Positions 9,561-30,969 of a stretch of 64,000 nt of DNA are shown here, piece after piece (the first letter of the stretch is position 1; the number at the start of each line of letters is the position of its first letter). The position numbers and the translations under genes are program-made. Where the stretch lies: NCBI GenBank assembly GCA_018268775.1, contig JAFDVV010000019.1, positions 156,483 through 220,482 of the forward strand, given 5' to 3'. This DNA is from Acidobacteriota bacterium (lineage in GTDB: Bacteria > Acidobacteriota > Terriglobia > Terriglobales > Acidobacteriaceae). The notes under the pieces are model-generated. The model was not told the DNA's origin. It searched no databases and was given only the letters and a program-made list of their open reading frames with translations.

Positions 9561-9581
9561 TTTGATGTCCCGATTACCAAA

Positions 9582-10936: not shown

Positions 10937-12358
10937 TTGGTTATTGAGGACGCCTTGCGACCATTTGAAGTTGCACTGACGATTGCCTTGGCTTTGACCG
11001 CCCTGATCGATCTGGCTGCCGTCAACCGAAGGGCCGGGTCTTTCCTCCGATCGCTTAGCGTGGCGCTGCTTGCCATTCACCTGGTTTATGAAGGCGGTCA
11101 CTGGCAGATGTTGCCGGTATACCTTGCGATCCTTGTGCTGATCTTTACATGGAGGAGGTCCGAGACCGGAGCCTGGAGATGGATGGCATCGGGACTGGTC
11201 TGCATTCTCTGCGCGCTCGGCGGAGTATTGTCCTATGCGATCCCGATGTTCTCCCTCCCTAAACCCACCGGGCCGTATCCCGTTGGCACCTGTGTGATTT
11301 ATATGCGCGATGACAGCCGGAAGGAAGATGCGGGGACGGACCGGGGCCGTAGCCGGGAGTTGATGGTCCAGATTTGGTATCCGGCGGCACCTTCAAAGAA
11401 CCATCTGGCTCCTTACCGGCGGTGGGCCGAGAGCAGGCTGAAAAATTCATATCAAAGTGTCTTGTGGACGAACTCCCGCGAAGATGCCCCAGTGGAATCG
11501 CACAGTGGGCCGTTTCCATTGGTTCTCTTCGGTCATGGATGGGGAGCGACGCGCATCTCGGACACGTTTCTGGCGGAGGACCTGGCCAGTCATGGTTATG
11601 TTGTTGTGTCGACCGACCATCCTTACAACTCAGCGCGCGTGGCGTTTCCCGACGGCCGGGTGATCGATGGAATAGACAATTCGCCCATCATCGATCTGGG
11701 GACTGAGCCGGCCGACAGGACCGAAGAGCTTTGGAACATGGAACTGGAGAAGTGGACGGCGGACCAGTTCTTTGTTTTGAACTCGCTTCAGGCAGCAAAT
11801 CTCGATCCGAAGAGCGTCTGGTACGGGCACCTGAACACAGACATCGTGGGAGCATTAGGACACTCCTTCGGAGGATCGGCGGCGCTGCGCATATGCAGCC
11901 TCGATCCAAGGGTCAGGTCGGCTATCAATATGGATGGCTGGACGTTCGATGGGGTCCGCGACCGGAAGAAGGGGAAGCCCATCATGTATATGTACGAGGT
12001 GAGCACGGATTCACAGCATGTTCTGGTGCACTCCCCCATTCCCGCAGAGCGGGTGAATGCCGAACTGGACGCTCTGGACGATAAGAACGTGCTGGACAAC
12101 CTGAAGGAGTACGGCGGATACAAGTTGACAATCGCAGGGGCCATGCATGCCGACTTTACCGACCAGCCCATGGTCTCGCCGTTCCACAGGATCACTCATA
12201 CGGGGCCGATCAAACCGGCACGAATGCAACTGATCGTTCGAGACTATGCGCTCGCCTTTTTCAATAAAACGCTGAGGGGGCAGAGTTCGCCATTACTGGA
12301 TTCCGGCGACACAAGCCCCTTCGGCGAAGTGCATTTTCAAGAGTGGTCCGCGCAGTAG
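10937..12358 (+). CDS. Membrane-anchored alpha/beta hydrolase (PAF-acetylhydrolase/lipase-like)
   Basis: Three or four N-terminal TM helices, then a hydrolase domain with a GHSFGG nucleophile elbow. TTG start as listed. Confidence 0.6.
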   Translation: MVIEDALRPFEVALTIALALTALIDLAAVNRRAGSFLRSLSVALLAIHLVYEGGHWQMLPVYLAILVLIFTWRRSETGAWRWMASGLVCILCALGGVLSYAIPMFSLPKPTGPYPVGTCVIYMRDDSRKEDAGTDRGRSRELMVQIWYPAAPSKNHLAPYRRWAESRLKNSYQSVLWTNSREDAPVESHSGPFPLVLFGHGWGATRISDTFLAEDLASHGYVVVSTDHPYNSARVAFPDGRVIDGIDNSPIIDLGTEPADRTEELWNMELEKWTADQFFVLNSLQAANLDPKSVWYGHLNTDIVGALGHSFGGSAALRICSLDPRVRSAINMDGWTFDGVRDRKKGKPIMYMYEVSTDSQHVLVHSPIPAERVNAELDALDDKNVLDNLKEYGGYKLTIAGAMHADFTDQPMVSPFHRITHTGPIKPARMQLIVRDYALAFFNKTLRGQSSPLLDSGDTSPFGEVHFQEWSAQ

Positions 12359-15300: not shown

Positions 15301-16263
15301 CGACAGAGCGGAGCGGACGATGACCTGGTTGGTGAACTGACCGATGAGCGACTCGAATTCGACCCGCGTCCTGCCCGCAAGCGGTGTGCGAAGAGCTACG
15401 TCGCCGGAACCGGTATAGCGATGGAGCAGCGCCATGCAGGCCGCCATGGCGACAACGAAGAAGGTGGTGTTCTCGGTCTGGGCGATACTACGCAGTTGTT
15501 CCGTCAGATTGCGCGGCAGAAGCTGCGACACAATGTCGCTCGCAATGGATGGATCCGCTACATCAAAATCGTGAGCGACCTGTAGCTGCGCGCAGTCCGC
15601 GAGCTTGTTCTTCCAATAGGCAAGCTGGGCCTGGACCTCAGGTTGAGAGAGCATCTCCTGCTGCCAGATAACGTAATCGCCGTATTGGAAGGTAACGGGA
15701 TCCAGAGGAGATGGCTGGTGTTGTGCATGGGCTGTGTAGAGCTTTGCAAGCTCGTCCATCAAGACGCCAATCGACCATCCATCGCAGACGATCTGATGCA
15801 GCGTGAGCACAAGCATCGACTTCGCCGGTGTCAGATGTATGAGGACAACCCGAAACGGTGGAGCTTGCGTCAGGTTGAAGCCGGTCTGCGCCTCACGAAC
15901 ACAGATGTCGTCCAACTCGCCGGCCTGCTTGTCTTCTGGACGGCCACGCAGATCGACGACGTTGAATGCGAGATCGACGGTGGGCCTGACAAGCTGGACG
16001 GTCTCAGCGCCATTGGCCTGGAATGTCGTTCGAAGCGACTCGTGGCGCTGCACGATCTCTCGGAGAGCGCGCTCCAATAGCGCGTCGTCGATGACGCCTT
16101 CAAGGTTCATCCGGAATGCGCCGTTGAACCGGGAGTCCGCCGTGCCGTCAAGATTCACAGGCAGCATGGCTGTCTGACCCGGCGTCAGCGGAAACGCAAA
16201 GTATTCTTCGTCCGGATTGCCGGGCTCCGACGATGGATTGCGAACAGTCATCTCCGAGGTCAT
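12385..16263 (-). CDS. NRPS termination protein with domains C(HQxxxDG)-C-T-TE and no adenylation domain
   Basis: - C1 spans about aa 20-460, with FPLTPGQ at its N-terminus and LHQIVCDGWS.
- C2 spans about aa 493-920, with SFAQERFW and VHHVIADAWS.
- T domain Ser lies in FFVLGGRSL (about aa 990).
- TE has GYSYGG (about aa 1118-1122) and a C-terminal GAH.
- 4-nt overlap with the upstream gene. Confidence 0.9.
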   Translation of the reverse strand: MTSEMTVRNPSSEPGNPDEEYFAFPLTPGQTAMLPVNLDGTADSRFNGAFRMNLEGVIDDALLERALREIVQRHESLRTTFQANGAETVQLVRPTVDLAFNVVDLRGRPEDKQAGELDDICVREAQTGFNLTQAPPFRVVLIHLTPAKSMLVLTLHQIVCDGWSIGVLMDELAKLYTAHAQHQPSPLDPVTFQYGDYVIWQQEMLSQPEVQAQLAYWKNKLADCAQLQVAHDFDVADPSIASDIVSQLLPRNLTEQLRSIAQTENTTFFVVAMAACMALLHRYTGSGDVALRTPLAGRTRVEFESLIGQFTNQVIVRSALSGELTFRDLVAKVRDCVWEALANQDAPFETVVRNYAGRDIDPTGLFRINFVCQREYGRSGPFQFELDGTRMTTLPSKSQGAIYDLNFFLVEREVGWRLSLEYKTDLYSKETAEGLLTNFHEVLAGIALDTSTKLVDLPLNNPEALLKRDAACSTSDSGNADSAIAEAQGTEAIPASFAQERFWTLSEVDPENPAFHMPVTLRLGGKLSIPLLEESFRLVIDRHETLRTTFSEIGGELMQVIHDRSAFALEQANIDEAPVTERAALLAATVQRMLREPFDLSSLPLFRASLCRLSPEEHLLVLSVHHVIADAWSIQVFQRELWTAYENLGKDRAFRFEPLALQYGDFSVWQREGIASEATQHHLDYWLRSLSGDLPVLNFPTDRPAHLQGTPNSSLESLLFPGELTQSLKQLAQANDTTLYVVSLTCFSLLLARASIAQDLVVGSPVVNRRSETEPLMGPFAGPVALRLQVRDDLTIRDLIVANRDKTIEALGHTEVPFEVLLDKLNVHPVAGRSPLFQFYFFCQTAFLQAREVPGLTITPQPTTSVGMPFEMQLAVIERKEGVRAELEYNANLFDRSTIQAWLEYYQTLLHVMVTAPEQKIGELPAPPYVARPLAIEPAQAVSHERAAIVGAADFPHDSLSTDLAAIWQSALNVDRVGPHDNFFVLGGRSLVAARLIAKINKEYSLKLGLATLFNCPTIAELSALIRGQLTPQVPSSIVAVQPDGTSAPLFVVHGVGGNVLNFYDLAKSLGSKYRIYGVEAQSLQPDATPLTSLEDLAAYYVQEVRKVQPNGPYNFLGYSYGGFVAFEMARQLQLAGEKVDMLGMLDTPVWRHAIREDNHPVAKGVRQIMAVWSPFFHRLRPCTPMEIFDGVKSTILRTYYTFAASRKIPIPSRLRSVYHINSFAAVNYVPKTYDGVITMLRASREKGPRDLGWSKFSTQPVRIFEIPGAHLQVLSDENLPRVVRSLRECLS

Positions 16264-19200
16264 CGATTTCCGTTTCTTCCGGGATCGACCGGCTCAGGCT
16301 CACGCAGCACTTGCGGCTGGGTGATTCTGTATTTCGACCGTGAGACAGGGACCAAGGGGGCCTGTCTGGGCGCGGCCGCACCCTTTTCGATGTCCGCAAG
16401 TATGGCTGCGATATTGCGGTGCTGAAGTATCTGACGCGGACGGGCTTCAATTCCTGCCTGGTTGGCACGCGCCGCGATCTGGAAGACGTGGAGAGAGTCG
16501 CCGCCAAGCTCGAATATGTTGTCTTCTACCCCGACGCGCTCAAGGTGCAAGACATCGGCCCATATCTTCGCGAAGCTCTCCTCTTGCGAGGTGCGCGGGG
16601 CAACGTACTTTGAGTTCTGCGAGAGTGACGTCCAACTGGGAGCGGGAAGCGCTTTGCGGTCGATCTTTCCGTTCGCCGTCAGGGCAAAGGACGGCAGGCT
16701 GATAAACGCCGCGGGTACCATGTAGTCCGGCAGCCTGCCCAGAAGATAGCTGCGTAGATCACCGGCATCTGGCGCCGTATCGTGACGCGGAATGATGTAG
16801 GCCACCAGACGCTTGTCGCCGGGGACGTCTTCGCGCAGCAGTACGACGGCCTGATCGAGCGCCGGATGGGTCGAGAGTATGCTCTCAATCTCGCCAAGCT
16901 CGATGCGGAATCCGCGAAGTTTGATCTGGCCGTCGGCCCTGCCGAGGAACTCAAGTTCACCGTTTTTCAGGCGGCGAACCATGTCGCCGGTGCGGTAGAG
17001 CCGTGCTCCCGGCTTGCTGCTGAAAGGATCGGAAATAAACCGTGCGGCCGTCAGGTCGGGACGCTTGTAGTATCCCTTGGCTACACCTGCACCGCCAATG
17101 TAGAGCTCGCCGGGAACGCCAAGTGGAACGAGTTGCTGCAACGGGTCGAGCACGTAAAACTGAGTGTTGTCGATTGGCAGTCCAACCGGAACTGCGCTGC
17201 CCCGGTTGGTGATGCGATTGGCCGCCGACCAGATCGTCGTCTCCGTTGGCCCGTACATGTTCCAGAGTTTGATGCCGCAGTCGAGTATCTGATCGGCCAG
17301 GTCGCGAGGCATTGCCTCGCCGCCACACCATGCGGTGATCGCGGGCTCTCCCTTCCATCCCGCCGCAAGCAGTAGACGAAAGGTGATGGGAGTGGCCTGC
17401 ATGATGGTCGCATGCGAGTCGCGCAGCAGCTTCAACAGTTGAGTGCCGTCGCTCGCAACCGCGCGGCTTGCAAGGACCAGTTCCGCGCCGCTGACGAGAG
17501 GCAAATATATCTCAAGCGCGGCGATATCGAAGGAGATTGTTGTGACGGCAACCAGAGTGTCCTTTGCTGTAAGTCCTGGTGTCTTTGCCATGGAGTTCAG
17601 CAGGTTTACAGCGTTTGAGTGCGTGACCTCAACTCCCTTTGGACGCCCCGTCGAACCAGATGTGTAGATAACGTATGCGACCTGTGAAGGCACATAGTTC
17701 AAATTGAGGTTGCCTGGGTCTTCCAACTCGATCTCGGGCCAAAGCGCGTCCACCGATAGAACTCTGGAGTTTGCGGATGGAACGTCGCCGGCGATCGCGG
17801 CCTGGGTGAGAACGGTCGGATTGACGATGTCCTCAAAGACCATCTTCAGGCGCTCGGCAGGGAACGTTGGATCGAGAGGAACGTAGGTCGCGCCAGCTTT
17901 CCAGACCGCAAGCAGCGAGACGATCATCGCGACCGACCGCTCCATATAGATTCCCACGACGTCGCCAGTCTTGACGCCATGCGAGAGAAGGTAGCGGGCA
18001 AGCCGGTTGACCCTCTCGTTCAACTGGAGATAGCTCAGGGACTGGTCTTCGAACTGTAGTGCCGGGGCATGCGGCGTTCTGGCCGTCTGCTGCTCGAAGA
18101 GTTGGTGGACGCAAAGGTCTTCCGGGAACGAGGCCTCAGTCTGGTTGAACGCAAATAGCGCGAGGTCGTGCTCCTTGCCGGTGAGCAGGGGAAGACGCGC
18201 GAGAGGCTGCGATGCGTCGCCGGTAAGGCCATTCAACAGAGCTTCATAGCATTCCATCCATCGCGTTACGGTCTCCTTGTCGATGAGGTTTGTGTTGTAG
18301 TCAACGTGCAGTGTGAGTCCGTCGGATCCTTCCACCGCGTTGACGAAGAGGTCGAAGTTGACGAAGCTCTTGGGATTCGGTTCGATCTTCGTCTCAAGGT
18401 TTGCAAACTTCAGATCGCCGCCGATCTTCTCGAGATTGAATTGCACTTCGAGGAGAGGAAGACGGCTGGCGTCGCGCGGGATCGCGAGCTTACGTACCAG
18501 TCTGCCGAAGGTGTAGTTCTGATGGTCGTAGGCATCGAAGACAGTTTGGCGTACTTGATCGAAGAACTGCGCCGTTGAAATGCCCTCGGCAGGCAGCGTC
18601 CGCATAGGCACGAAGTTGACGCAGTGGCCGACCAGTGTCTTGTCTTCAACGAGCGACTGGCCGGCTGCCGGAACGCCGATGACGATATCGTCCTGGTTCG
18701 AGAGCCGCGACAGCAGAGCGGAGAAGGCGCTCAACAGTGTGGCGAAGAGCGTGCATTTCTGTTGTGCACCGGCCTTCTTGATCTCCTTCAGCGTTTGTAA
18801 GTCGATCTTCTTCGTGAACGTCGAGCCTTCAAAGCTCTTCATCGCAGGACGCGCATGATCGAGTGGAAGGTCGAGCAGTGGAGGCAGTATCTCGAATTTC
18901 TTCGTCCAGTAAGATTCGACTGCTGCGCCTTCGATGCTGGCGAAGTGTTTTTCCTGCGCCCTTGCATACTCGCTGAAGGGCATAAGTGGACCGAGTGCGG
19001 GAGAGGTTCCCGCAGAGCGCGCGGTGTAAGTCTTTGCCAATTCGTCGAGCAGGACGTTGATGCTCCAGCCATCGCAGACCGCGTGGTGCGCGGTAAACAC
19101 AAGAGCGTGACGTTGCGGCGCGAAGCGCAGCAGAGACATACGAACCAGAGGCCCCAGCTTCAGATCGAAGGGTTTGCGGGCATCTTCGGCAATGAAACGG

Positions 19201-22200
19201 TCGAACCTTTCCTTCTGCTGGCCTTCGGAAAGATCGGAAAGGTCGATGGACGAAAGATTGGCAGAGGCAGGTGCAGCAAAGTGCTGAATACCAGCGTTCT
19301 GGTCGAACGTTGCGCGCAGAGCTTCGTGGCGCGACAGGAGATCGGCAAGCGAATCGGTAAGAACCTTCCGGTCCAGTTCGCCCGTCATATGCAGCGTGAA
19401 GGATTCGTTGAAGCTGCAATTGGCCTCAGGAGATAGCTCGGCTGAGAGCAGGATCTCCATCTGCGATTCGGTGATTGGAGCGCTCTTTGCAGTCGACGAT
19501 TCGAAAACAGCGTCAGTCGCAGTGCCGGACGGCAAGGGTAGAAGATCGCCAGCCTGCATCTCCGCGATCGTCTCATGGAAGGCGCGGAAGACTTTTTCGA
19601 GGTCGGCGTCGCTATGTTCGGTCGTAAGGAAGCAGGGGAAGCCCTCGAGCAGGTAGATGCCCTTGGAGCGCAGGTGCGTGTAGAAGATGCTGCTGAAGCG
19701 ATAGTCGCTGGGGAAGGCAAAGTAGAAGAAGCTGGCGAAGGTCTCGATCCTGACCGGCAGCTCGTTCTGAGCAAAGAGGGAATTGAGCCGCGCGATCAGT
19801 TGTGCTGTTCGCTGCGTCAGGCGTTCCTGCAGTTGCGGACCCTGCTCCTTGAGATACTTCAGCACTGCGGCGCAGGCGGCCATCGCAAGCGGATGACGGA
19901 CGAAGGTCCCGGCGAAGAAGGTTACGCCAACCTCTGGGAAGGAGTCGTCGCCGTAGTGCCACATTCCTCCGTCGAGAGCATCCAGATACTTCGCTTTGCC
20001 TGCAAGGACGCCCATGGGCATGCCCCCGGCAAGAACCTTGCCGTAGGTGGCGAGATCGGCGTGGACCCCGAAGAGCGTCTGGCAGCCGCCGGGATGAGAG
20101 CGGAAGCCCGTGACGACTTCATCGAAGATGAGGCAGACGTCGGCTTGCTCCGTAATGCGGCGAATCTCGCGCAGAAATTCGACCGGCTGCAGGTTGGGAT
20201 GGCGGCTTTGCACCGGCTCGACAAGGACAGCGGCAAGCTCGCCGATGTGGGAGCGAATCCACTCGAGCGATTCAGCCGTGCCGTAGTCGAGCACGATCAT
20301 GTTCGAGACGGACTCGCGCGGAATGCCGGGAGCGATGGGGGCCGATTGTGGAACGCCCTGGCGCTTGAACCCTTTGACCAGCACCTCATCGAACATGCCG
20401 TGATAGTCGCCTGCGAAGAAGACGATCTTGCTCTTGCCTGAGATTGTCCTTGCGAGACGCATCGCGGCCATGACGGCCTCTGAACCGGTATTGCAGAACG
20501 TCGCTCGCTCATTGCCGGTCATCTCGCAGAGCGCTTTCGCGACCTCGCCAGCCAGGATCGTTTGCGGGCCAATCTCAAAGCCCTCGTGCAACTGCTTCGC
20601 GATGGCCTCTTCGACGAAGTCGGGCCTGTGGCCCAGCATGATGGGGCCAAAGCCGTTGAGGATATCGACATACTCGTTGCCGTCGAGGTCCCAGATGTGT
20701 GAGCCCTTGGAGCGGTTGGTGACGATCGGATAGATCAGTTCTTTCCACTGCGCGCGGAAACCGGCAACGACTCGCGGGTCGGCGAGATACTGACGGCTCT
20801 CCTGGGTCTTGCTCTTTGAAGTTCTGGTGCGGGTCGTGTAGGAATCCGTCAGATGCCGGATGTGGTCGAGTTGACGTTGGGTCAACTCACCGGAGACGTT
20901 CTTCTGCAGAGGTTTGAACGGGGTGTAGCCCTTCAACTCAACGTTGGCGGCATCTTTCGCTGGCGCGGATGCTTCGGGCTTCGGAGGCACTGCGGCTGGT
21001 ATTGGCGGTATGGCTTGAGGAGCCGCTCCAGCGCCTTGCAGGACAGCGACCTGCTGCGCAAAGAGCTGGTTCATCGCCTGAAGTTGATCTCTCATCAACT
21101 GTTCGAGGGCCGTGCCGGCACCTGGTGTTGTGCCATAGCTCTGCGCGGCCGGCTGTGTCACCGGCCTGACCGCGTTCATACCTGCGGAGTCTGGCGTTGT
21201 GTTCCCCACCGGGGCCTCCCCGGACAAAGCTGGGCCCTCAAACGATCCGGGCGGCAGTTGCGCATCAATATAGTCCGCGAGTGCAACCAATGTCGACTGA
21301 TCGCCCATCAGTTGCCGAAACGTGGTTTTGACGCCGAATTTACTCTGGAGCCCCTGAGATATCTGAGTCAAAAACAGGGAATCGAAGCCGAGTTCGAGGA
21401 AAGAGGCCTCCCGGTCGGAGTCAGCGACTGTCTGTCCGGAAAGCTCCTCGAAGATATCTGCAATCAGCCCGCGTAGATGCTCGTTGCGGGGCTTCGTGCC
21501 AATGGGTGCGGCCGTACTCATGGATAACATCTCCTCGGAAGTTGAATCGGCAACAGGTGCGGTGACCTGCACGGAGGCGGTTCCTCTATCTGGCGCCAAT
21601 GTGTTGCTGTCTGTCGTTGCTGTCAGTGAATCGCTGAACCAGAATCGTTTGCGATCGAATGGGTACGTAGGCATTGAGACGCGCAGGCGCCGTTCATCCT
21701 TATGGAACTGTTCCCATGCAGGTTGAACTCCGTAGGCCCAAAGCGCGCCCAGAGATTGCTGCATGACGAACGCCTCGCCATGGTTAGAGTTGCCGTCAGT
21801 CATAGATGAGACGATGACGCGGTTCGCCGATGGCGTCGTGTGCTGGCGGGCCAATGTAGCGAGTACACCGCCAGGGCCCACTTCCAGAAGCGCGGTATCT
21901 TCTGTCTTCAGAAGGAGAGTGATGGCCTGCGAGAAGCGGACAGAGTCCCTGACATGCCGCGTCCAATATGCGGGATCGGTAGCCTGCTCCGCGGTTATCC
22001 AGTCGCCGGTGACGCAGGACACATAGGGGAGCGAAGGGGCAGACAGGCGCACCTTCTCAACTTCCTTCTGGAAGGCGGGAAGGATTGGATCCATCATCGA
22101 TGAGTGGAATGCATGCGAGGTATAGAGCTTGCGATGAACCACTCCGCGAGCCGTCAGTTCCTCCTCCAGCTTTGCAATGGCGTTGGAGGGGCCGGAGACG

Positions 22201-24323
22201 ACGCACAGCGCCGGTGCGTTGATCGCCGCGATACTCAGACCGTGACTAAGGAGCGGTAGTGTATCTGCCTCGCTCATGCGAACGCTCAACATGTCTCCTT
22301 TGGGAAGGTCCTGCATCAGAGCGCCGCGAACGGCTACCAGGTGCAAGGCGTCTTCAAGTGAGAAGACTCCGGCAAGGCAGGCTGCGACAAACTCGCCGAT
22401 GCTGTGGCCTGTCATCGATCGAGGTTCGATGCCCCACGACATCCACAACTTCGCAAGAGAGTATTCGACTGCAAAGATCGCAGGCTGGGCGAAGTACGTC
22501 TGCGTCGTGTCGAAGTTGGCGGAGTTGTCGTCCTGAAACAGCGCCTCGCGCAAGTCAAGGCCGAGTTCGGAACGCAGCAGGGAAGCGCAGGTGTTGAAGG
22601 CGTCGCGATAGACCTGCTCCGTCCTGTAGAGCTCACGGCCCATATTGGCGTGTTGCGAGCCCTGGCCCGGGAATATGAAACTGACGCCCGGTTGTGCGGA
22701 TTCCCTCCTGCGATCAGCACGCGAAGTGAGGGGAGTGTTGAGTGCGGCGACGGCAGATTCGATGGAGTCCGCGGCTACGGCGCGGCGGTAGGGGAATGCC
22801 TTGCGTCCTAGTTGTAGCGTATAGGCAACATCGGCCAGCGAGATGTCTGGATACTGCTTTAGGAAACCGGCAAGGTTTGACGAGGCTCTATTCAATGCCT
22901 CCTGCGATCGCGCGGAAAGCGTCAGCAGTTGAACCCGGCGAGCTGGCGGTGCAGACTCCTGTGGTGGGGCCTCTTCCAGAATGAGGTGTGCATTGGTCCC
23001 GCCGACACCAAAGGCGCTCACTCCCGCACGGCGCGGCGAGCCGTTGTTCTCCCACCTTCCGCCCGTGGCCGTCACCTTGAAAGGGCTTGAGGCGAAGTCG
23101 AACTTCTCCGTCGCATGCTTGAAGTGAAGCGTTGGCGGAAACTGTCCATGTCTCACGACATGCGTCGCGTGAATCAGTCCTGTAACTCCGGCGGCGATGT
23201 CGAGGTGGCCGACGTTGGCCTTGGCCGTGCCGATAGTGCAGAACCCGGATTCGTCCGTACCGGCGCGGAATGCCTTCGTCAACGCTGCAAGTTCTATAGG
23301 GTCGCCTAGTGGGGTGGCAGTGCCATGGGCTTCGACGTACCCGATGCTTGCGGGATCGACTCCGGCAGCCTGCTGTGCCATTGCGATGACGCTGGCCTGA
23401 CCTTCGATACTTGGGGCCGTGTAGCCGATCTTGGTTGCACCGTCGTTGTTGGAGCCAAACCCGCGTATGACCGCGTAGATATGATCTCCATCGGAGATGG
23501 CGTCTTCAATCCGCTTTAGAAGGACGACGCCCACGCCGCTGCCGAAGACCGTACCCTGCGCATCGTTGTCAAACGGGCGGCAGTGCCCGTCGGCTGATCC
23601 CATGCCGCCTTCCTGATACATATAGCCGCGCTTCTGCGGCAGCGTGATGGAAACGCCGCCGGCGAGCATCATGTCGCTCTGGTAGGTGAGGAGACTCTGG
23701 CAGGCCTGGCAGATGGCAAGCAGCGAGGTCGAACACGCGGTCTGAATGGCATAGCTGGGGCCGCGCAGGTTGAACTTGTATGAGACACGGGTCGGCAGAA
23801 ACTCAGGCTGATTTCCCATCATGCTCTGGTAGTTGCCGATCTGGTAGTTCTCGATGAAATTTTGTGCGAACCCGGGTTGCGCGCAGAGCTGCGAGAGGAA
23901 ATAACTGCCGTAACTCGATCCGGCTACAACGCCGATCGAGCCGGTGTAGTCGAAGGGGTTGTAACCGGCATCTTCAAAGGTCTCCCAGCAGCACTCAAGA
24001 AAGAGCCGGTGCTGCGGGTCCATCTGCAATGCTTCCTTCGGAAGTATTCCGAAGAACTCTGCATCGAAGTTTTCAATGTCAGCCAGTACGGAACGTGAAC
24101 GGATGTAATTTGGTTCCCGTGCCTGCGCCTTGTTGCCCGCGAGCTCAAGCTCCTCAAAACTGAAGTGAGAGATGGCTTCGACACCCGCAAGCTGGTTCTT
24201 CCAGAACTCTGCCACACTGCTCGCGCCGGGGAAGCGGCCGGACATTCCGATGATGGCGATTCCGTCAAGGTTGTCCGTGGCTTGTGCAGGCTCGTGCTCG
24301 AGGTTGTTCTCGGGAGGTGTCAT
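16260..24323 (-). CDS. Hybrid PKS-NRPS with domains KS-AT-ACP-aminotransferase(class III, PLP)-C-A-T
   Basis: Approximate aa ranges:
- KS 21-450: TACSTS Cys197, EAHGTATPLGD, ANVGHLD.
- AT 547-860: GHSIGE, and HAFH indicating malonyl specificity.
- ACP about 950-1025: LGFDSL.
- AMT 1180-1590: GSEAVMAA, DEVVTGFR, TYGKVLAGG with the PLP Lys.
- C 1615-2045: HHAVCDGWS.
- A 2070-2560: YTSGSTGRPKG, NMYGPTE, GELYIGG, YRTGD.
- T about 2580-2650: LGGDSL. Confidence 0.92.
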   Translation of the reverse strand: MTPPENNLEHEPAQATDNLDGIAIIGMSGRFPGASSVAEFWKNQLAGVEAISHFSFEELELAGNKAQAREPNYIRSRSVLADIENFDAEFFGILPKEALQMDPQHRLFLECCWETFEDAGYNPFDYTGSIGVVAGSSYGSYFLSQLCAQPGFAQNFIENYQIGNYQSMMGNQPEFLPTRVSYKFNLRGPSYAIQTACSTSLLAICQACQSLLTYQSDMMLAGGVSITLPQKRGYMYQEGGMGSADGHCRPFDNDAQGTVFGSGVGVVLLKRIEDAISDGDHIYAVIRGFGSNNDGATKIGYTAPSIEGQASVIAMAQQAAGVDPASIGYVEAHGTATPLGDPIELAALTKAFRAGTDESGFCTIGTAKANVGHLDIAAGVTGLIHATHVVRHGQFPPTLHFKHATEKFDFASSPFKVTATGGRWENNGSPRRAGVSAFGVGGTNAHLILEEAPPQESAPPARRVQLLTLSARSQEALNRASSNLAGFLKQYPDISLADVAYTLQLGRKAFPYRRAVAADSIESAVAALNTPLTSRADRRRESAQPGVSFIFPGQGSQHANMGRELYRTEQVYRDAFNTCASLLRSELGLDLREALFQDDNSANFDTTQTYFAQPAIFAVEYSLAKLWMSWGIEPRSMTGHSIGEFVAACLAGVFSLEDALHLVAVRGALMQDLPKGDMLSVRMSEADTLPLLSHGLSIAAINAPALCVVSGPSNAIAKLEEELTARGVVHRKLYTSHAFHSSMMDPILPAFQKEVEKVRLSAPSLPYVSCVTGDWITAEQATDPAYWTRHVRDSVRFSQAITLLLKTEDTALLEVGPGGVLATLARQHTTPSANRVIVSSMTDGNSNHGEAFVMQQSLGALWAYGVQPAWEQFHKDERRLRVSMPTYPFDRKRFWFSDSLTATTDSNTLAPDRGTASVQVTAPVADSTSEEMLSMSTAAPIGTKPRNEHLRGLIADIFEELSGQTVADSDREASFLELGFDSLFLTQISQGLQSKFGVKTTFRQLMGDQSTLVALADYIDAQLPPGSFEGPALSGEAPVGNTTPDSAGMNAVRPVTQPAAQSYGTTPGAGTALEQLMRDQLQAMNQLFAQQVAVLQGAGAAPQAIPPIPAAVPPKPEASAPAKDAANVELKGYTPFKPLQKNVSGELTQRQLDHIRHLTDSYTTRTRTSKSKTQESRQYLADPRVVAGFRAQWKELIYPIVTNRSKGSHIWDLDGNEYVDILNGFGPIMLGHRPDFVEEAIAKQLHEGFEIGPQTILAGEVAKALCEMTGNERATFCNTGSEAVMAAMRLARTISGKSKIVFFAGDYHGMFDEVLVKGFKRQGVPQSAPIAPGIPRESVSNMIVLDYGTAESLEWIRSHIGELAAVLVEPVQSRHPNLQPVEFLREIRRITEQADVCLIFDEVVTGFRSHPGGCQTLFGVHADLATYGKVLAGGMPMGVLAGKAKYLDALDGGMWHYGDDSFPEVGVTFFAGTFVRHPLAMAACAAVLKYLKEQGPQLQERLTQRTAQLIARLNSLFAQNELPVRIETFASFFYFAFPSDYRFSSIFYTHLRSKGIYLLEGFPCFLTTEHSDADLEKVFRAFHETIAEMQAGDLLPLPSGTATDAVFESSTAKSAPITESQMEILLSAELSPEANCSFNESFTLHMTGELDRKVLTDSLADLLSRHEALRATFDQNAGIQHFAAPASANLSSIDLSDLSEGQQKERFDRFIAEDARKPFDLKLGPLVRMSLLRFAPQRHALVFTAHHAVCDGWSINVLLDELAKTYTARSAGTSPALGPLMPFSEYARAQEKHFASIEGAAVESYWTKKFEILPPLLDLPLDHARPAMKSFEGSTFTKKIDLQTLKEIKKAGAQQKCTLFATLLSAFSALLSRLSNQDDIVIGVPAAGQSLVEDKTLVGHCVNFVPMRTLPAEGISTAQFFDQVRQTVFDAYDHQNYTFGRLVRKLAIPRDASRLPLLEVQFNLEKIGGDLKFANLETKIEPNPKSFVNFDLFVNAVEGSDGLTLHVDYNTNLIDKETVTRWMECYEALLNGLTGDASQPLARLPLLTGKEHDLALFAFNQTEASFPEDLCVHQLFEQQTARTPHAPALQFEDQSLSYLQLNERVNRLARYLLSHGVKTGDVVGIYMERSVAMIVSLLAVWKAGATYVPLDPTFPAERLKMVFEDIVNPTVLTQAAIAGDVPSANSRVLSVDALWPEIELEDPGNLNLNYVPSQVAYVIYTSGSTGRPKGVEVTHSNAVNLLNSMAKTPGLTAKDTLVAVTTISFDIAALEIYLPLVSGAELVLASRAVASDGTQLLKLLRDSHATIMQATPITFRLLLAAGWKGEPAITAWCGGEAMPRDLADQILDCGIKLWNMYGPTETTIWSAANRITNRGSAVPVGLPIDNTQFYVLDPLQQLVPLGVPGELYIGGAGVAKGYYKRPDLTAARFISDPFSSKPGARLYRTGDMVRRLKNGELEFLGRADGQIKLRGFRIELGEIESILSTHPALDQAVVLLREDVPGDKRLVAYIIPRHDTAPDAGDLRSYLLGRLPDYMVPAAFISLPSFALTANGKIDRKALPAPSWTSLSQNSKYVAPRTSQEESFAKIWADVLHLERVGVEDNIFELGGDSLHVFQIAARANQAGIEARPRQILQHRNIAAILADIEKGAAAPRQAPLVPVSRSKYRITQPQVLREPEPVDPGRNGNR

Positions 24324-26263
24324 CGGGCCACGCCCTTCGTCGTACGTAGGCGGGCAAAGGCCTCACGCTGCCTGCGCGCCTGCTCCTGGGCCGCGGTGAG
24401 CGTCGCAGAAGGCCTGGCCGGTGAACCGCTTGTTTCGACAAGTTTGTCCGCGAGAGAACGAACCGTTGTGAACTCGAACATCCACGTCACAGGGATTGAG
24501 CGGTTGAGCTGCTCCTGAAGCTGTGACCTCACGGCGGCCAGAAGAATAGACGTGCCGCCGATGTCGAAGAAATTGTCGTCCAAACCTACCTGCGAGGCCT
24601 TCAATACGTCGCGCCAGACCTGAGCGATCCGGGCTTGCAATGGTGAACTGGACGTTGCTTGCCGCTCGTCTGCGGTGGCTGACGCGGAGCCGGTTGTTGG
24701 CTTTGGTAGCGCCGCGCGATCGACCTTGCCATTGCCAGTCAGCGGAATCGTCTCCATCTGTATATAGAAGGACGGCATCATCTGCGCTGGCAAACGCTGC
24801 GAGAGGAACCGGCTCATGTCACCAGCCGTGGGTTTGCCGCCTTCCGTGACGAAATAGGCCGCAAGCGCTTGCCGTCCGTCGTCGGTCGTGTGGCCGATGA
24901 CGCAGACCTGACGTACTCCTGGAAAATCGGAGATCGCCGCTTCGATCTCTCCAAGCTCGATGCGAAAGCCGTTGATCTTCACCTGGTTGTCGCCGCGTCC
25001 GAGATAGACAAGCTCGCCGTCGGGGCGCCGCCTGGCGAGGTCTCCAGAGCGATACATCTTCGCTCCGGGAGGGCCGAACGGGTCGGGTACAAAGCGTTCG
25101 GCCGTCAGTTCAGGCCGGTTGAGATATCCGTGGGCGACACCTCCTCCGCCCACGCATATCTCTCCGACCTCACCATCTGGAACCGGAAGAAGCTCCGCGT
25201 TCAGAAGGTGAATCTGTAAATCGGGGATTGGCACACCGATCAGGCTGTCCTGCTCGCCCTGTGTGTCCGCTTCGCGCACGATGCGATAGGTCACATGAAC
25301 CGTCGTCTCGGTGATGCCGTACATGTTGACGAGTTGCGGCTTGATGTCGCCATGTCGCCTGAACCAGTTGCGCAGTGAGTGGTATTGAAGCGCCTCACCG
25401 CCAAAGATCACGACGCGTAGCGAGAGCGGCAGCGCAGTTCCAGACTCCTCCAGTTGGTTGAGCAGTGAGAATGCAGAAGGGGTCTGATTCAGCACCGTCA
25501 CCTTTTGCTCGGAGAGCAGGGCGTAAAAGTCCTCTGGAGAGCGACTGGTGGCAAAGGGAACGATGACAAGTTTTCCGCCAGTGGTCAGTGGCCCCCATAT
25601 CTCCCACACGGAGAAGTCGAAGGCAAACGAATGAAACATGGTCCAGACGTCGGTTTCGTTGAAGTGAAACCACGTCTCCGTCTCGCTCAGCAGGCGGACG
25701 ACGTTATGGTGCGAGACCAGCACGCCCTTTGGCTTGCCTGTGGAACCCGATGTGAACATGACGTAGGCGAGGTCGTCGGCCTTCGGGCGTACTGGGAGAG
25801 GTTCCGGCACTATGGGGTCAAGCGAAGGCAGTTCGTCTGCAAGGATGATTTGCGATGCTGTCTTCTCAAGGATGGAGGCCAGTTTCCGATTCGTTATGAC
25901 GACCAGCGGCGTAGCATCTTCAAGCGTTTGTAGGACTCGCGCCGAGGGATACCCGGGGTCGATCGGCAGGTAGGCGCTTCCTGATTTGAGCACGCCAAGC
26001 ATGGCGGCAATCATCTCGATGGAGCGGTCAAGGTAGATGGCAACGATACCGCGTCGATCCCCCGAGGCTGCAACCAGGCGACGTGCCATTTGGTTGGAGG
26101 CGCGATCCAACTCGGAATAGGTCGCCTGCTGGGGCCCGCAGACGACGGCAACTCTATCCGCATGGCTCCGGGCTGCTTTTTCAAACAGTGAAACCAGAGA
26201 ATCGTCGACAATGCGGTTTCTGGAAGTCTCGTCTTCTATTGCATGTATTGCTCTTGTTGCCAT
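24320..26263 (-). CDS. Stand-alone NRPS A-T didomain (loading module), predicted Thr-activating
   Basis: FTSGSTGKPKG, FAFDFSVWE, NMYGITETTVH, YRSGDLA, NGKVDR; T-domain motif FFDIGGTSI. A hand-extracted 10-residue specificity code reads DFWNIGMVHK, which equals the canonical Thr code. Confidence 0.9.
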   Translation of the reverse strand: MATRAIHAIEDETSRNRIVDDSLVSLFEKAARSHADRVAVVCGPQQATYSELDRASNQMARRLVAASGDRRGIVAIYLDRSIEMIAAMLGVLKSGSAYLPIDPGYPSARVLQTLEDATPLVVITNRKLASILEKTASQIILADELPSLDPIVPEPLPVRPKADDLAYVMFTSGSTGKPKGVLVSHHNVVRLLSETETWFHFNETDVWTMFHSFAFDFSVWEIWGPLTTGGKLVIVPFATSRSPEDFYALLSEQKVTVLNQTPSAFSLLNQLEESGTALPLSLRVVIFGGEALQYHSLRNWFRRHGDIKPQLVNMYGITETTVHVTYRIVREADTQGEQDSLIGVPIPDLQIHLLNAELLPVPDGEVGEICVGGGGVAHGYLNRPELTAERFVPDPFGPPGAKMYRSGDLARRRPDGELVYLGRGDNQVKINGFRIELGEIEAAISDFPGVRQVCVIGHTTDDGRQALAAYFVTEGGKPTAGDMSRFLSQRLPAQMMPSFYIQMETIPLTGNGKVDRAALPKPTTGSASATADERQATSSSPLQARIAQVWRDVLKASQVGLDDNFFDIGGTSILLAAVRSQLQEQLNRSIPVTWMFEFTTVRSLADKLVETSGSPARPSATLTAAQEQARRQREAFARLRTTKGVAR

Positions 26264-26472: not shown

Positions 26473-27423
26473 TCAGTGCTGGCCCTTTACGCCGCGAACG
26501 ACCTTTCCTGCCAGCTTTCGCATAGGAAGGATGGCATTCATCGCATTTGCCTTCAACGCGTCTGCTGCCGGGTGTTTTCCTGGCTCGGACGGGGCGATCC
26601 CAGCGCGCCGTATGTAGTGATTGAAGGCGCGTGTTCGTCCCAAAGACCGTGTCGACTCAGTTTCCAGAACGACCGAGTAAGAGATCGACTGCGAAGAACA
26701 GGTCTCGACCCAGTGCGGTGCGTTCTGTGGCTGGTGCAGCCCCTTTCCGGCTGAAAGTTGGAAGACGTGCTCCCGGGCTGGGTCGCGCCGGTTGACGTCC
26801 ACTTTGCCGATCTCGACGGAACTCTTGATGTAGAAAGGCTCCAGTTCCGCCTCCGTCACATTGGCAGGTGGATAGACGTGGTAGATCTTTTCGCCCGCAA
26901 TCTGGCAGAAGAAACCCACCTCGGGGTCGAAATGGATCGGAGTCGTTGTCTTTGCCGAGCTGACGAAGACGGAAGACTCAAGCCGCACGATCTTGTCGCC
27001 TCCAAATCCGCCCTTCGCCTCGCTGATCGATGCAAAAAGCGCGTCGATCAACTCGCGGAAGCCCGTATCGTACTTCTCCGGACGCTTGAGCAGGACGCGA
27101 TAAGGGGCTTGGTCGAGCAACGTCATCGCAACATGCGGGGCGTGTTGTCCATGAGGTACGGAGTTGAAGTCGGCATTCGCGGAGGGCGCGCTTGATGCGA
27201 CGAAGGCGTCTGCCGGATTCGCGAGGTACTTCTCGGCCAGGTTGCGCAGATAGTCGTAGGAGAATATCTCCAGGTCGCTCAGATTGTGAGCTGTCGCCAG
27301 TGGCTCGATATTGAATGTCTCGGCAAATGAGGGAGTCGCAAATCGCAATGCGGCTTCCCGTGGCGCAGAGGCCTTCGGCAGGGGAAGACCGGCTTGCGAA
27401 TGAACTGTTGTACTGGATGCCAT
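26473..27423 (-). CDS. Cupin/JmjC-like Fe(II)/2-oxoglutarate oxygenase candidate
   Basis: 316 aa. An H-x-D (TPIHFDPE) and a distal His (QNAPHWVE) are spaced as in JmjC/FIH-type cupins. First gene of the minus-strand NRPS-PKS gene string. Confidence 0.45.
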   Translation of the reverse strand: MASSTTVHSQAGLPLPKASAPREAALRFATPSFAETFNIEPLATAHNLSDLEIFSYDYLRNLAEKYLANPADAFVASSAPSANADFNSVPHGQHAPHVAMTLLDQAPYRVLLKRPEKYDTGFRELIDALFASISEAKGGFGGDKIVRLESSVFVSSAKTTTPIHFDPEVGFFCQIAGEKIYHVYPPANVTEAELEPFYIKSSVEIGKVDVNRRDPAREHVFQLSAGKGLHQPQNAPHWVETCSSQSISYSVVLETESTRSLGRTRAFNHYIRRAGIAPSEPGKHPAADALKANAMNAILPMRKLAGKVVRGVKGQH

Positions 27424-27855: not shown

Positions 27856-29106
27856 CTAGCTTTTGCGGGAAGTTTCGCCGGTTACTTTTGTGTAGACATC
27901 TCTCCAATCCCGAATGACTCCCGACCATAGATAGCCATGGTTGTAGGCCCGTTCCCGCGCTTGGATTGACATGCTCTCGGCCAGGCTGCCGTTCTCTGCC
28001 AGACGGTCCATGGAGGAAGCGAGTTGCTCGATTACGAACTCCTCGCTTACGGGGTCGATCAGGATTCCAGTCTCGGGTGTCACGAGCAAAGAGGGCCCCC
28101 CCCAGTTGCAGGCGATGACCGGTAGACCCTGGACCATGGCCTCCTGAACGACGATCCCGTTTGCTTCGGCAAGACTGGGGAAGACGAACGCACGGTATTG
28201 CCGCAACATCTCGGCCAGCTTGCTGTGGTCGGCGACCCACTCGATGAACTGGACGCGGTCTTCCAAAGAGAGGCTTTTTGTCAGGGACTTCAGTTGGCCA
28301 AGTTCAGGCCCGCGGCCAATAATATCCAGCTCAATTCGGTTCTTTGTCTTGAGAAGGCTCTTGATGATGAGGTCCGTACCTTTATGCTCAACCAGACGTC
28401 CGTTGTGGAAGAAGCGAAGGTTCTTGCCCTCATGGGTGATCCGGGGTTGATCGTAGAGGCGGTCGAGGACGCCGCTGTCGATCGAGGCGACAAACTGCTT
28501 CTCGCTGCATCCTGCCATGCGCAGAGATTCGTAGGTTCGTCTACCGCCTGCAACAAGCAGGGCGTTTGCCTTGCGTTTGCCTGGAAACAAGATGCCGTTG
28601 AGGTATTGCAGTGAAGGATGAAGCCAGCGCCGCACTTTGTAGGAGAGCTTTTCGCGGTGCCGAAATCCCGGTGGGTAGTGGATGTTGCCGTTGATCGGGC
28701 CGATTACAACGGTTGCGCCACCAATCGACGGGTAGGGCAGCACGGGGGACACGGGGGAGGTGAAATGGATCAGCGCTCCCGGATTTTCCTTTAGCAGAGT
28801 TCTTGCATGTCTTGCGGCGGAGCAAAAGAACAGATAGTTCAGCAATTGTTCGAATATCTTGCCGCGATAGAGCAGCCTCTCCGTCATCGTCTCGGCAATG
28901 TAGGAGACCTTCATCTCGGGGAAGCTCTTTGCCATCTCCAGACGAACACGCTCATGCGTGATCTGATGCGCGCTAACGCCTTGCTTCTCCAACTCCCGGT
29001 AAATCTGCAGGGCCTTGATCGCCTCTCCGCCCATCTGTTCGGAAACGTTGGGGGCGATGAGGATGACGTCGAATTTTTCAGTGGACGAGGCAGCAGTTAC
29101 AGTCAT
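27856..29106 (-). CDS. GT4 glycosyltransferase
   Basis: 416 aa with the E-x7-E region FPSLAEANGIVVQEAMVQGLPVIACNWGGP. Confidence 0.75.
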   Translation of the reverse strand: MTVTAASSTEKFDVILIAPNVSEQMGGEAIKALQIYRELEKQGVSAHQITHERVRLEMAKSFPEMKVSYIAETMTERLLYRGKIFEQLLNYLFFCSAARHARTLLKENPGALIHFTSPVSPVLPYPSIGGATVVIGPINGNIHYPPGFRHREKLSYKVRRWLHPSLQYLNGILFPGKRKANALLVAGGRRTYESLRMAGCSEKQFVASIDSGVLDRLYDQPRITHEGKNLRFFHNGRLVEHKGTDLIIKSLLKTKNRIELDIIGRGPELGQLKSLTKSLSLEDRVQFIEWVADHSKLAEMLRQYRAFVFPSLAEANGIVVQEAMVQGLPVIACNWGGPSLLVTPETGILIDPVSEEFVIEQLASSMDRLAENGSLAESMSIQARERAYNHGYLWSGVIRDWRDVYTKVTGETSRKS

Positions 29107-29222
29107 TCGTGTTGGAACCTTAGGAAGAACTCAGTGGCGAGGATTTCAATTGTCCGGTCAGAGCGCTTCACGAGAATACAGGAAGCGGTCAACGCTGGTC
29201 AGCAGTTGTACGGCATGTAGTC

Positions 29223-30350
29223 TTGCAAAGAAAAAAGCGCGTCTATTGCAAGTTACCCATCGGTTACGCGTGTGAGATTACATTTTTACTCACCAAAAAG
29301 GTCTATAGCAGAGATGTGGCTTCTCCGTATACTGAGAACACTGTGTCACAAGCGGCCAAAAGTTGTTACGAGTACGATGCGTCCATCATCATTGTCTCTT
29401 TTAACACTCGCGAGGTTCTTCGTGAATGCCTCGATTCGGTGATCTGCGAATCCGCCGGCTTCCGCATTGAAATACTCATAGTGGACAACAACTCGTCCGA
29501 TGGATCGCCCGAGATGATCGAGCGGGACTTTCCCCAGGTGAAGCTGATCCGAAGCGCTGTCAATCTTGGCTTCGGTGCCGCCAATAATCTTGCGCTCGAA
29601 CAGGCAAAAGGCCGGTACTACGTCCTGCTGAACTCGGACGCTTTCTTTCAAAAGGATGCGCTGAAGAGGGCGATCGAGCACATGGATGAGCAGCCCGGCT
29701 GTGGTCTTGGAGGCAGCCGCCTCATAGGAAGAGACGGATCGTGGCAGCCGTCGTCGCGCTCCTTTCATTCCATTGTCCGCGATTTGGTCGTGATGACGGG
29801 ATTGGCATACAAGTTTCCACGGTCGAGGTTCTTTGGCCACTTCGACCGGACATGGGCAGACCGCGACCAGCCGGCATCGGTTGATTGGGTTCCGGGGGCT
29901 TTTTCCATTATTCGTCCGTCGGCGTTAGCTAGAACGGGATTGTTCGATCCAGCCTTCTTTCTTTACTACGAAGAAGTCGACCTTTGCAGGCGAATCAAAG
30001 ACGCTGGCTATTCAATCTGGTACTGGCCGGACGTTGTCGTCGTTCACATCGGCGGAGAGTCTTCCCGGCAACTCAAAACAACACTCGAGATATCCTCAAT
30101 GGCGGCACAGGTGGTGATGTGGCGGATGCGCAGCACTCTTCTTTACTACCGCAAGCATCACGGTCCACAGGCCTGCATGGCCAAGTGGAGCGAGCTGACG
30201 ATGTACCGGCTTACCGTATTGCGCAATCGGTTCAGCAGCGCTCCGATGCGGAGGGAGCGCGGAGAACACTATCGCACCATGATTGCGTTGATGAACCAGG
30301 CGTGGAAGGACACTCAGGGAGGACGCGTCTCGCCCCCGCGACCGTGGTAA
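29223..30350 (+). CDS. GT2 glycosyltransferase (rhamnosyltransferase-like)
   Basis: SIIIVSFNTREVLRECLDS, VDNNSSDGS, LNSDAF and a YYEEVDLCRR motif. TTG start at 29223; an in-frame GTG at 29316 is an alternative. Confidence 0.75.
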   Translation: MQRKKRVYCKLPIGYACEITFLLTKKVYSRDVASPYTENTVSQAAKSCYEYDASIIIVSFNTREVLRECLDSVICESAGFRIEILIVDNNSSDGSPEMIERDFPQVKLIRSAVNLGFGAANNLALEQAKGRYYVLLNSDAFFQKDALKRAIEHMDEQPGCGLGGSRLIGRDGSWQPSSRSFHSIVRDLVVMTGLAYKFPRSRFFGHFDRTWADRDQPASVDWVPGAFSIIRPSALARTGLFDPAFFLYYEEVDLCRRIKDAGYSIWYWPDVVVVHIGGESSRQLKTTLEISSMAAQVVMWRMRSTLLYYRKHHGPQACMAKWSELTMYRLTVLRNRFSSAPMRRERGEHYRTMIALMNQAWKDTQGGRVSPPRPW

Positions 30351-30360
30351 CCTTCCGGCT

Positions 30361-30969
30361 ATGTCCCACACGCGCTTGAAATCCGTGCTGGTTGCACCAC
30401 TGAAGTTATTGCTGCGAGTTCTCTCGGGTCCGGGTGAATTGTTCCGGCGGCTCTACTCCCACGCCTCGCTCGCTGCGCATTTGCGCGCAAAGCTCCCCAC
30501 ATCCGTCGTTGTGCTTGGCCGGACATGGGTCTATGGGACGGGCGCCGTGCGTTTTGGCAATTCGGCGTTGATCTATCCCGATCTGCACCTTGAAACCCAG
30601 GGAGCGGCGACGATTACCCTCGGCGATGGCGTCGTGCTCTCGCGCGGGGTGCATCTTGTAGCCATGAGCGGGATAACGATCGGTAACGGCACAATGATCG
30701 GCGAATATACGAGCATCCGCGATGCAAATCATCAGCGGGTTGACGGAATGCCGCTGAGGGATTCCGGGCATACCGCCAGTCCGGTCGCTTTGGGCTCCGA
30801 GGTCTGGATTGGCAGGGGAGTGACCATACTCGGCGGGGTTTCCATAGGAGATGGCGCAACGGTTGGCGCGAATGCTGTCGTCACCCGGGACGTCCCCGCA
30901 GGCGCGGTTGTGGCCGGAGTACCGGCAAGGGCGATCTCGCAGAGCGCAGTCAGCGTACGCAGTGCGTAG
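30361..30969 (+). CDS. Hexapeptide-repeat (LbH) O-acetyltransferase
   Basis: Repeated [LIV]-G-x4 hexapeptides (ITIGNGTMIGEYTSI, VWIGRGVTILGGVSIGDGATVGANAVV). Confidence 0.75.
   Translation: MSHTRLKSVLVAPLKLLLRVLSGPGELFRRLYSHASLAAHLRAKLPTSVVVLGRTWVYGTGAVRFGNSALIYPDLHLETQGAATITLGDGVVLSRGVHLVAMSGITIGNGTMIGEYTSIRDANHQRVDGMPLRDSGHTASPVALGSEVWIGRGVTILGGVSIGDGATVGANAVVTRDVPAGAVVAGVPARAISQSAVSVRSA

Follow-up and report, generated by a model that had tools for sequence, protein, structure and literature searches.

A predicted threonine-primed NRPS-PKS line with an in-line aminotransferase in a soil acidobacterium

Our analysis of a 64,000-nucleotide stretch of DNA (the window) from a soil acidobacterium (Acidobacteriaceae) points to a hybrid NRPS-PKS assembly line that would build on threonine. 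The locus is best explained as a hybrid NRPS-PKS operon of four genes next to a hydrolase gene, an explanation that we consider probable when taken as a whole, and its domains are likely to be read as a threonine start followed by malonate extension, beta-transamination, addition of glycine, and a terminal C-C-T-TE protein. Its reading as a MycA-type module in a Thr-primed version is a well-supported prediction from the sequence. The original prediction, a collinear route from Thr through a malonyl unit and a beta-amine to Gly, is supported by sequence evidence at each step and by comparative data, and all the sequence features on which it relied are found, on the minus strand.

The synthetase part consists of 3 genes spanning approximately 14 kb, all on the minus strand (as are all of their domains given below) and translationally coupled through 4-nt stop/start overlaps (24320-24323 between P0001 and P0002; 16260-16263 between P0002 and P0003). 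Pfam and motif positions define P0001 (24320..26263) as an A-T loading protein, P0002 (16260-24323) as a KS-AT-ACP-AMT-C-A-T protein, and P0003 (12385..16263) as a terminal C-C-T-TE protein that lacks an A domain. The span first assigned to the pathway (19554-26263) contains the loader, KS, AT, ACP and AMT but, within P0002, reaches only residue 1590, where the AMT domain finishes, so that the C-A-T with the Gly code (16395-19484) falls outside it. The cluster lies inside a glycan locus, comprising exopolysaccharide and partner-switching genes.

The A domain of P0001 (24725-26185) scores 451.6 bits against the amino-acid adenylation model TIGR01733 and is not a fatty-acyl-AMP ligase of the MycA type; it is accompanied by a T domain (24446-24631) with its serine at residue 572 (codon 24548-24550). 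When the residues equivalent to GrsA positions 235/236/239/278/299/301/322/330/331/517 are extracted, the code, running from Asp216 to Lys513, is DFWNIGMVHK, the Stachelhaus code for Thr, matched at 10/10 positions as the original prediction had it. These positions can be trusted because the same extraction, applied to relatives, yields textbook codes of the Val, Gly, Ser, Asn and Pro-like types. Nor is the match due to chance, given that 5 orthologous clusters keep both A-domain codes of the line at 10/10 even though identity is only 61-79% for the loading A domain and 65-85% for that of P0002; the loading code is 10/10 in L081-L084, of which L082 belongs to the cultured bacterium Granulicella aggregans. 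In the A-domain tree, the Thr-coded loaders form a single clade. Of 63 relatives, 30, including the Thr-coded L046, have the loading A-T and the KS in one polypeptide, with the A-T in front.

The KS of P0002 (23121..24260) retains the catalytic Cys197 in TACSTS (codon 23733-23735) and both histidine motifs, EAHGTAT (His333) and NVGHLD (His373); with this Cys-His-His triad it is of the elongating kind, neither KSQ nor KS0. The AT (21795..22679) carries GHSIGE at residues 639-644, with the active Ser641 (codon 22401-22403), and HAFH at 737-740, which is the mark of malonyl-specific ATs, and conforms to the GHS[VIL]GE plus HAFH pattern of malonyl cis-ATs rather than to GHSQGE with YASH. The second PP-binding stretch recognized by Pfam, with the motif GFDSL and Ser982 (codon 21378-21380), corresponds to the ACP (21255..21497). 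In the PDB, the KS-AT portion is matched best by 8XJY/8XJZ (E 5.6e-244), a PKS whose structure was determined together with a peptide synthetase. Among 65 relatives, the KS Cys/His/His, the AT Ser, the ACP Ser and the AMT Lys are invariant, and in HAFH both histidines and the alanine are each found in 64, and the phenylalanine in 62. A decarboxylating or inactive KS is ruled out by the invariance of the triad in these relatives.

Immediately after the ACP comes a class-III PLP aminotransferase (19536..20870; Aminotran_3, 1e-52), in which the anticipated Schiff-base lysine, Lys1429 (codon 20037-20039), sits in TYGKVLAGG. This domain aligns with the structure of the mycosubtilin MycA AMT, 6KFM (E 3.6e-135; query residues 3-447, with the YGK aligned), and similarly with 6KFU (approximately 1e-135). 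The MycA AMT acts on beta-ketoacyl-S-ACP by transamination. As predicted, KR, DH and ER domains are absent, with no Pfam match in P0002 at E <= 0.001; Pfam detects no KR in P0002 or in the neighbouring genes, which sets the line apart from the statine type. A reductive domain hidden in the ACP-AMT linker was also considered and is ruled out, because the stretch is empty in Pfam and of low-complexity, Ala/Pro-rich composition. P0002 thus has the MycA/ItuA-type order, KS-AT-ACP-AMT with a C domain immediately after it.

This C domain (18171..19484) is intact, with HHAVCDG, and precedes the second A domain (16665-18098) and a T domain (16395..16571; Ser2610). The code of the second A domain reads DILQWGMIWK, agreeing, as originally reported, with DILQLGLIWK, the Stachelhaus code for Gly, at 8/10 positions, and with the usual code of the family, DILQLGMIWK, at 9/10. 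Glycine is therefore a likely but not certain substrate, the doubt coming from the replacement of Leu by Trp (Trp2332) at position 299. Activation of another small amino acid, such that the unit after the diamino acid would not be Gly, is unlikely, even though only 8 positions of the canonical code are matched and the Trp, strictly conserved in the sub-family, could mean an altered pocket. Indeed, Asp235 and Lys517 are retained, implying an alpha-amino acid substrate, Gly domains share the DILQ.G.IW. frame, and a bulkier residue at 299 would be expected to make the pocket smaller, not larger. Furthermore, the position-equivalent A domain is of the DILQ.G.IW. type, with a 9/10 Gly code, in nearly all relatives.

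The architecture of P0003 is common to more than 120 full-length relatives. Its first C domain (14878-16200) has the degenerate motif HQIVCDG (HQxxxDG) and is probably non-catalytic; it bears no sign of an epimerase or cyclisation type, and a PDB search retrieved ordinary C domains (Txo1/2, TycC). The second C domain (13492-14790; HHVIADA) is intact and is followed by a T domain (13186-13374; Ser990) and a TE (12400-13119; GYSYGG). Most likely, the carrier of this A-less module receives its amino acid in trans; the probable donor is the second A domain of P0002, which would supply Gly. This donor is suggested by those relatives in which the last module has its own, Gly-coded A domain (L025; L018, L019, L021); in other relatives, the last-module A domains carry Ser- or Val-like codes, and in none is the code that of the loader. 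Because the line runs on through C(degenerate)-C-T-TE, and because a JmjC-like oxygenase accompanies it, the diamino-acyl-Gly unit would be an intermediate rather than the product.

The gene for this putative Fe(II)/2-oxoglutarate oxygenase, a JmjC/cupin-like protein (26473..27423, minus strand; Pfam Cupin_8, 2.7e-08, and JmjC_2), is separated from the downstream A-T gene by 209 bp. It has no NCBIfam match and only marginal PDB matches, to JMJD5 and FIH (E about 0.4-0.7), but at least 30 of 80 loci with related lines have a cupin homologue alongside. On the other side of the cluster, convergent with P0003, is a gene for a membrane-anchored, PAF-acetylhydrolase-like serine hydrolase (10937..12358, plus strand; PAF-AH_p_II, 6e-19) with a hydrophobic N-terminus and a GHSFGG motif. 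In Bradyrhizobium and other loci, and in L081, homologues of the hydrolase are encoded directly 3′ of the terminal NRPS gene; we regard the hydrolase gene as a probable accessory to the cluster.

From the domain order, catalytic residues, codes and conservation, we infer the substrates and the order of events as follows. The free-standing A-T protein P0001 would activate L-threonine and load it onto its own carrier; the KS of P0002 would receive the threonyl unit and condense it with the malonyl-ACP supplied by the cis-AT, yielding 4-amino-5-hydroxy-3-oxohexanoyl-S-ACP. With no KR, DH or ER at hand, the PLP aminotransferase is predicted to convert the 3-keto group into an amine, producing 3,4-diamino-5-hydroxyhexanoyl-S-ACP, a vicinal diamine; this step is proposed by analogy, as the homologous MycA domain does the same on fatty-acyl chains. 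The C domain of P0002 would then link the diamino-acyl chain to Gly on the carrier of the second A domain, after which the chain would move to P0003, with its second C domain and A-less carrier, and be freed by the TE through hydrolysis or cyclisation; the oxygenase may add a hydroxyl.

Alternatively, P0001 might charge the A-less terminal carrier in trans and not feed the KS at all, the latter being primed otherwise, for instance with acetyl from decarboxylated malonyl, such that the product would be 3-aminobutyryl-Gly-Thr or similar. In support of this scenario, the terminal module lacks an A domain, P0001 is a protein on its own, and the oxygenase gene adjoins that of P0001 in an arrangement reminiscent of the SyrB1/SyrB2 pairing, in which SyrB1 provides Thr to the A-less last module of syringomycin synthetase. 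We nevertheless consider it improbable, given that the A-T is covalently ahead of the KS in nearly half of the relatives, that the coupled genes follow the order A-T, then KS, that the KS possesses Cys instead of the Gln of a decarboxylating loader, that Pfam and motif searches reveal no GNAT or KSQ loading domain, and that complete last modules never carry the code of the loader. P0001 could also act in both roles, priming the KS while serving the carrier of P0003, which needs a donor as well. A point against the main reading is that, with a free alpha-amine beside it, the beta-keto thioester could close to a pyrrolidine-2,4-dione ahead of transamination. Very improbable is an early exit, in which attack of the Thr-derived amine on the thioester would release a tetramic-acid-type or 4-aminopyrrolidinone lactam, leaving the downstream modules idle or otherwise used. 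A gamma-amino-beta-keto or beta,gamma-diamino thioester could plausibly react in this way, and no N-acylating starter C domain that would shield the amine is detected by Pfam, but the AMT-C-A-T arrangement and the terminal TE are kept across phyla with intact motifs, which would not persist if the chain left at the ACP.

The closest known systems are MycA and ItuA, of mycosubtilin and iturin synthesis (AMT structures 6KFM, 6KFR and 6KFU), which share with P0002 the KS-AT-ACP-AMT-C-A-T order, the lack of reductive domains, a homologous AMT, and the predicted conversion of a beta-ketoacyl-S-ACP into a beta-aminoacyl-S-ACP prior to condensation with an amino acid. MycA, however, starts with a fatty-acyl-AMP ligase and an ACP and places the amine on a long fatty chain, whereas here the starter would be an amino acid delivered by an NRPS A-T, so that the new amine would be installed beside an existing one, giving the vicinal diamine; the Thr-primed line is also very short as a whole. 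In statine-type lines (pepstatin, didemnin, thalassospiramide), an NRPS-carried amino acid is likewise passed to a KS and extended with malonate, but their modules employ a KR to make gamma-amino-beta-hydroxy acids, whereas the line described here has an AMT and, by Pfam, no KR. The microcystin McyE, nodularin NdaF and puwainaphycin lines and the beta-aminating flavipulchrin line (PMC12819058) likewise introduce a beta-amine by means of an in-line class-III aminotransferase located after the ACP, but the chains of all of these are polyketide or fatty-acyl, not aminoacyl-primed. A catalogue published by Milano et al. in 2013 includes uncharacterised A-CP-KS-AT-CP-PLP1 proteins, such as Pedobacter heparinus C6XWU5, with the predicted type ‘Nrp-Mal-Gly’ (PMC3870968), which share the amino-acid-primed architecture and the subsequent Gly but are cis-fused, have other loading specificities and were listed without a product. 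The carenaemin locus cpl of Collimonas arenae, a PKS/NRPS that begins with KS/AT and an aminotransferase, is linked to glycans in that activity also needs a sugar repeat-unit locus (PMC8313283); however, its starter is unknown, it has a KR-containing module and uses other amino acids. The link to the present cluster is positional only.

The line belongs to a widespread family. One genome collection contains at least 585 related stretches, such a line is present in 21 of 150 genomes sampled from the Acidobacteriaceae, and clusters of this kind are common in public genomes and frequent in soil bacteria. The scheme of amino acid, malonate, amine and Gly is kept in relatives across phyla, with a variable first residue that is mostly Val. 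Our search of the literature found no characterised member, biochemical data or metabolite for the family, only the orphan catalogue and unrelated, fatty-acid-primed AMT lines. Speculatively, and we regard this picture as doubtful when all of its parts are taken together, the family may represent a large cross-phylum class of small metabolites with an amino acid-CH(NH2)-CH2-CO-Gly core (beta,gamma-diamino-acyl-glycine) and a lineage-dependent first residue, the Thr version of which is kept in an acidobacterial exopolysaccharide/partner-switching locus, where the metabolite may be tied to the glycan, being produced for it, linked to it or regulated together with it, instead of serving as a free antibiotic.

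If the threonine-primed reading is correct, vicinal (beta,gamma) diamino acids would be made from an amino-acid starter and one malonate by means of an in-line transaminase, a route for which we found no characterised example, and the Thr-primed clade would endow the core with an extra hydroxyl handle. Because the line is short, it is a practical target for heterologous expression, and given the frequency of the family, a single solved product would annotate hundreds of orphan clusters.

Three long open reading frames follow one another on the minus strand of the window, with stop/start overlaps of 4 nt: P0001, the loading protein (24320-26263, 647 aa; A-T by Pfam), P0002 (16260-24323, 2687 aa; KS-AT-ACP-AMT-C-A-T, where AMT is an in-line PLP aminotransferase domain) and P0003, the terminal protein (12385-16263, 1292 aa; C-C-T-TE). 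As originally predicted, the Pfam domain orders of the three proteins include no KR, DH or ER, and the catalytic motifs on which the prediction drew are in place in P0002: TACSTS (Cys197), EAHGTAT (His333) and NVGHLD (His373) in the KS, GHSIGE (Ser641) and HAFH (737-740) in the AT, and TYGKVLAGG with the PLP lysine (Lys1429) in the AMT; the ACP motif is GFDSL (Ser982). Alignment-based extraction recovered both specificity codes: the loader (the A domain of P0001) has DFWNIGMVHK and the second A domain (16665-18098, minus strand) has DILQWGMIWK. The ten positions were taken from an alignment to P0001 in which the motifs defining GrsA 235-517 (FDxS, NxYGxTE and GK) served as anchors. Identical extraction in relatives yields textbook codes (DAFWLGGTFK, DILQLGMIWK, DVWHISLVDK, DLTKIGHIGK), which validates the positions. 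The span first assigned to this chemistry, 19554-26263, is too short: it stops where the AMT does, at residue 1590 of P0002, leaving the second A domain outside.

In MycA, a mycosubtilin synthetase subunit, the AMT domain converts a beta-ketoacyl-S-ACP to its beta-amino form. The AMT region of P0002 matches the MycA aminotransferase crystal structures 6KFM and 6KFU over its full length (E about 1e-135), with the lysine of YGK aligned, and the runner-up matches are glutamate-1-semialdehyde aminomutases (about 1e-56). The best match of the KS-AT didomain, ahead of CurL and DEBS modules, is a PKS solved with a peptide synthetase (8XJY/8XJZ, 815 bits), which fits a KS taking its substrate from an NRPS carrier. 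Apart from its starter, an amino-acid A-T rather than a fatty-acyl ligase, the module is of the MycA/ItuA beta-aminating type in all respects tested; statine-type modules differ in having a KR. We propose that threonyl-S-T would be extended with malonate to 4-amino-5-hydroxy-3-oxohexanoyl-S-ACP, that transamination would give 3,4-diamino-5-hydroxyhexanoyl-S-ACP, and that the intact C domain (HHAVCDG) would join this chain to Gly. As a prediction, this collinear reading is quite likely to be right, with conservation and gene fusions behind it.

A scan with the AMT region of one-genome-per-species contigs yielded at least 585 confirmed relatives, in Acidobacteriota, Bradyrhizobium, Rhodanobacter, Dyella, Lysobacteraceae, Pedobacter, Flavobacteriia, Verrucomicrobiota, Kofleriaceae and Ignavibacteriaceae, among other hosts; 80 loci were kept, and their domains were annotated by search with those of the window. 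The core (A-T, KS-AT-ACP-AMT, C-A-T) is constant, and the ends differ (C-C-T-TE, C-A-T-TE, C-T-TE, TE alone, or extra modules). A loader could be recognised in 63 loci, and 30 of these have the A-T fused in cis ahead of the KS, the strongest argument that the separate P0001 would prime the KS. Across 65 relatives, no substitution occurs at the KS Cys/His/His, the AT Ser, the ACP Ser or the AMT Lys, and HAFH is kept in 62 to 64. The second A domain is of the Gly type, DILQ.G.IW., almost everywhere. Loader codes vary, most being Val-like (DA[FL]W.GGTFK), with some Ile-like, Pro-like, Asn-like or lacking an assignment. Thr-coded loaders, DFWN[IV]GMVHK, occur in the window and seven loci (DFWNIGMVHK or DFWNVGMVHK in L032, L033, L035, L038, L039 and L046; the related DFWNVGGVFK in L042) and form one clade beside the Val clade in a maximum-likelihood tree.

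In Verrucomicrobia and Pedobacter relatives (L034, L037, L049, L061, L070), the Gly-type A domain (second or third) is split into two matches and the Lys517 column is missing, suggesting insertion of a domain, possibly a methyltransferase. The Xanthomonadales versions (L059, L066, L071; Rhodanobacter, Dyella) have two or three extra Gly-coded modules (Val*-Gly-Gly-Gly), and the second His is absent from their last C domain (HAHELVLDR). The megasynthase is broken into several overlapping frames in L001, L020, L038, L043 and L067, several of them long-read-derived MAGs; these are probably assembly frameshifts, not real pseudogenes.

Orthologous clusters (L081, L082 from Granulicella aggregans, L083, L084) were retrieved via the terminal protein. 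Identity to P0001 is only 61-79% for their loading proteins, and the P0002 homologues share 65-85%; still both codes are kept 10/10, down to the unusual Trp that the second domain has at position 299, which points to purifying selection on both pockets.

The original scheme stopped at Gly. Its predicted Thr-malonate-amine-Gly order is supported, but P0003 continues the line, so that the predicted diamino-acyl-Gly unit is an intermediate, not the final product. In the first C domain of P0003 (14878-16200, minus strand), the second His of HHxxxDG is replaced by Gln (HQIVCDG); otherwise it is like an ordinary C domain. Many relatives with the C-C-T-TE order have Gln or Leu at this position and others have His (the loci noted besides the window are L002, L006, L012, L017, L023 and L035); the second C domain has HH in all cases. 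Judging from its sequence, the first C domain therefore seems to be either degenerate or repurposed. Some relatives have HHSVADY there, without Gly-Trp. Pfam found no A domain for the terminal carrier of P0003, and where relatives have one, its code is Gly in L025, L018, L019 and L021 and Ser- or Val-like in others; hence the carrier is most likely loaded in trans with Gly by the second A domain, loading by P0001 being the alternative.

Two further genes lie beside the synthetase genes. A JmjC/cupin-like protein (26473-27423, 316 aa) is encoded 209 bp upstream of P0001, and since such genes adjoin Val- and Thr-primed lines alike (at least 30 of 80 loci), this putative oxygenase probably acts on a part of the scaffold common to both. 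A membrane-anchored PAF-acetylhydrolase-like serine hydrolase (10937-12358, plus strand; GHSFGG motif, hydrophobic N-terminal region of about 100 aa) is convergent with the NRPS-PKS genes and probably part of the cluster; homologues come immediately after the last NRPS gene in Bradyrhizobium (L012, L016, L017, L035), in L018, L019, L021, L025 and L033, and likewise in L081, a close orthologue.

The block is flanked on both sides by genes for glycan synthesis (GT4, GT2, sugar transferases, a WecG/TagA fusion), and a kdp operon and a set of partner-switching genes are close by; the glycan and partner-switching genes lie at 2031-10790 and 27856-30969. The close orthologues L081 (13967-23933) and L083 (14055-23807) share the REC-PP2C phosphatase, RsbW-like kinase, STAS protein, sugar transferases, GT4 and GT2 in the same order at 65-77% identity; more distant orthologues do not keep these neighbours, and in L082 glycan and partner-switching genes do not flank the block. 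Only within the lineage, then, has the cluster kept its place inside a glycan locus. A loose parallel for a connection in function may be the carenaemin locus of Collimonas, where activity of an AMT-containing PKS/NRPS depends on a sugar repeat-unit cluster (PMC8313283).

Our literature searches found no characterised product of an amino-acid-primed member; a 2013 survey listed proteins of this sort as orphans, among them a Pedobacter heparinus A-CP-KS-AT-CP-PLP1 protein with the prediction 'Nrp-Mal-Gly' (PMC3870968). Among sampled genomes of the window's taxonomic family, 21 of 150 have such a line, which is therefore an accessory trait there. The line in the window is a predicted Thr-primed form of a known kind of module, belonging to a widespread orphan family.
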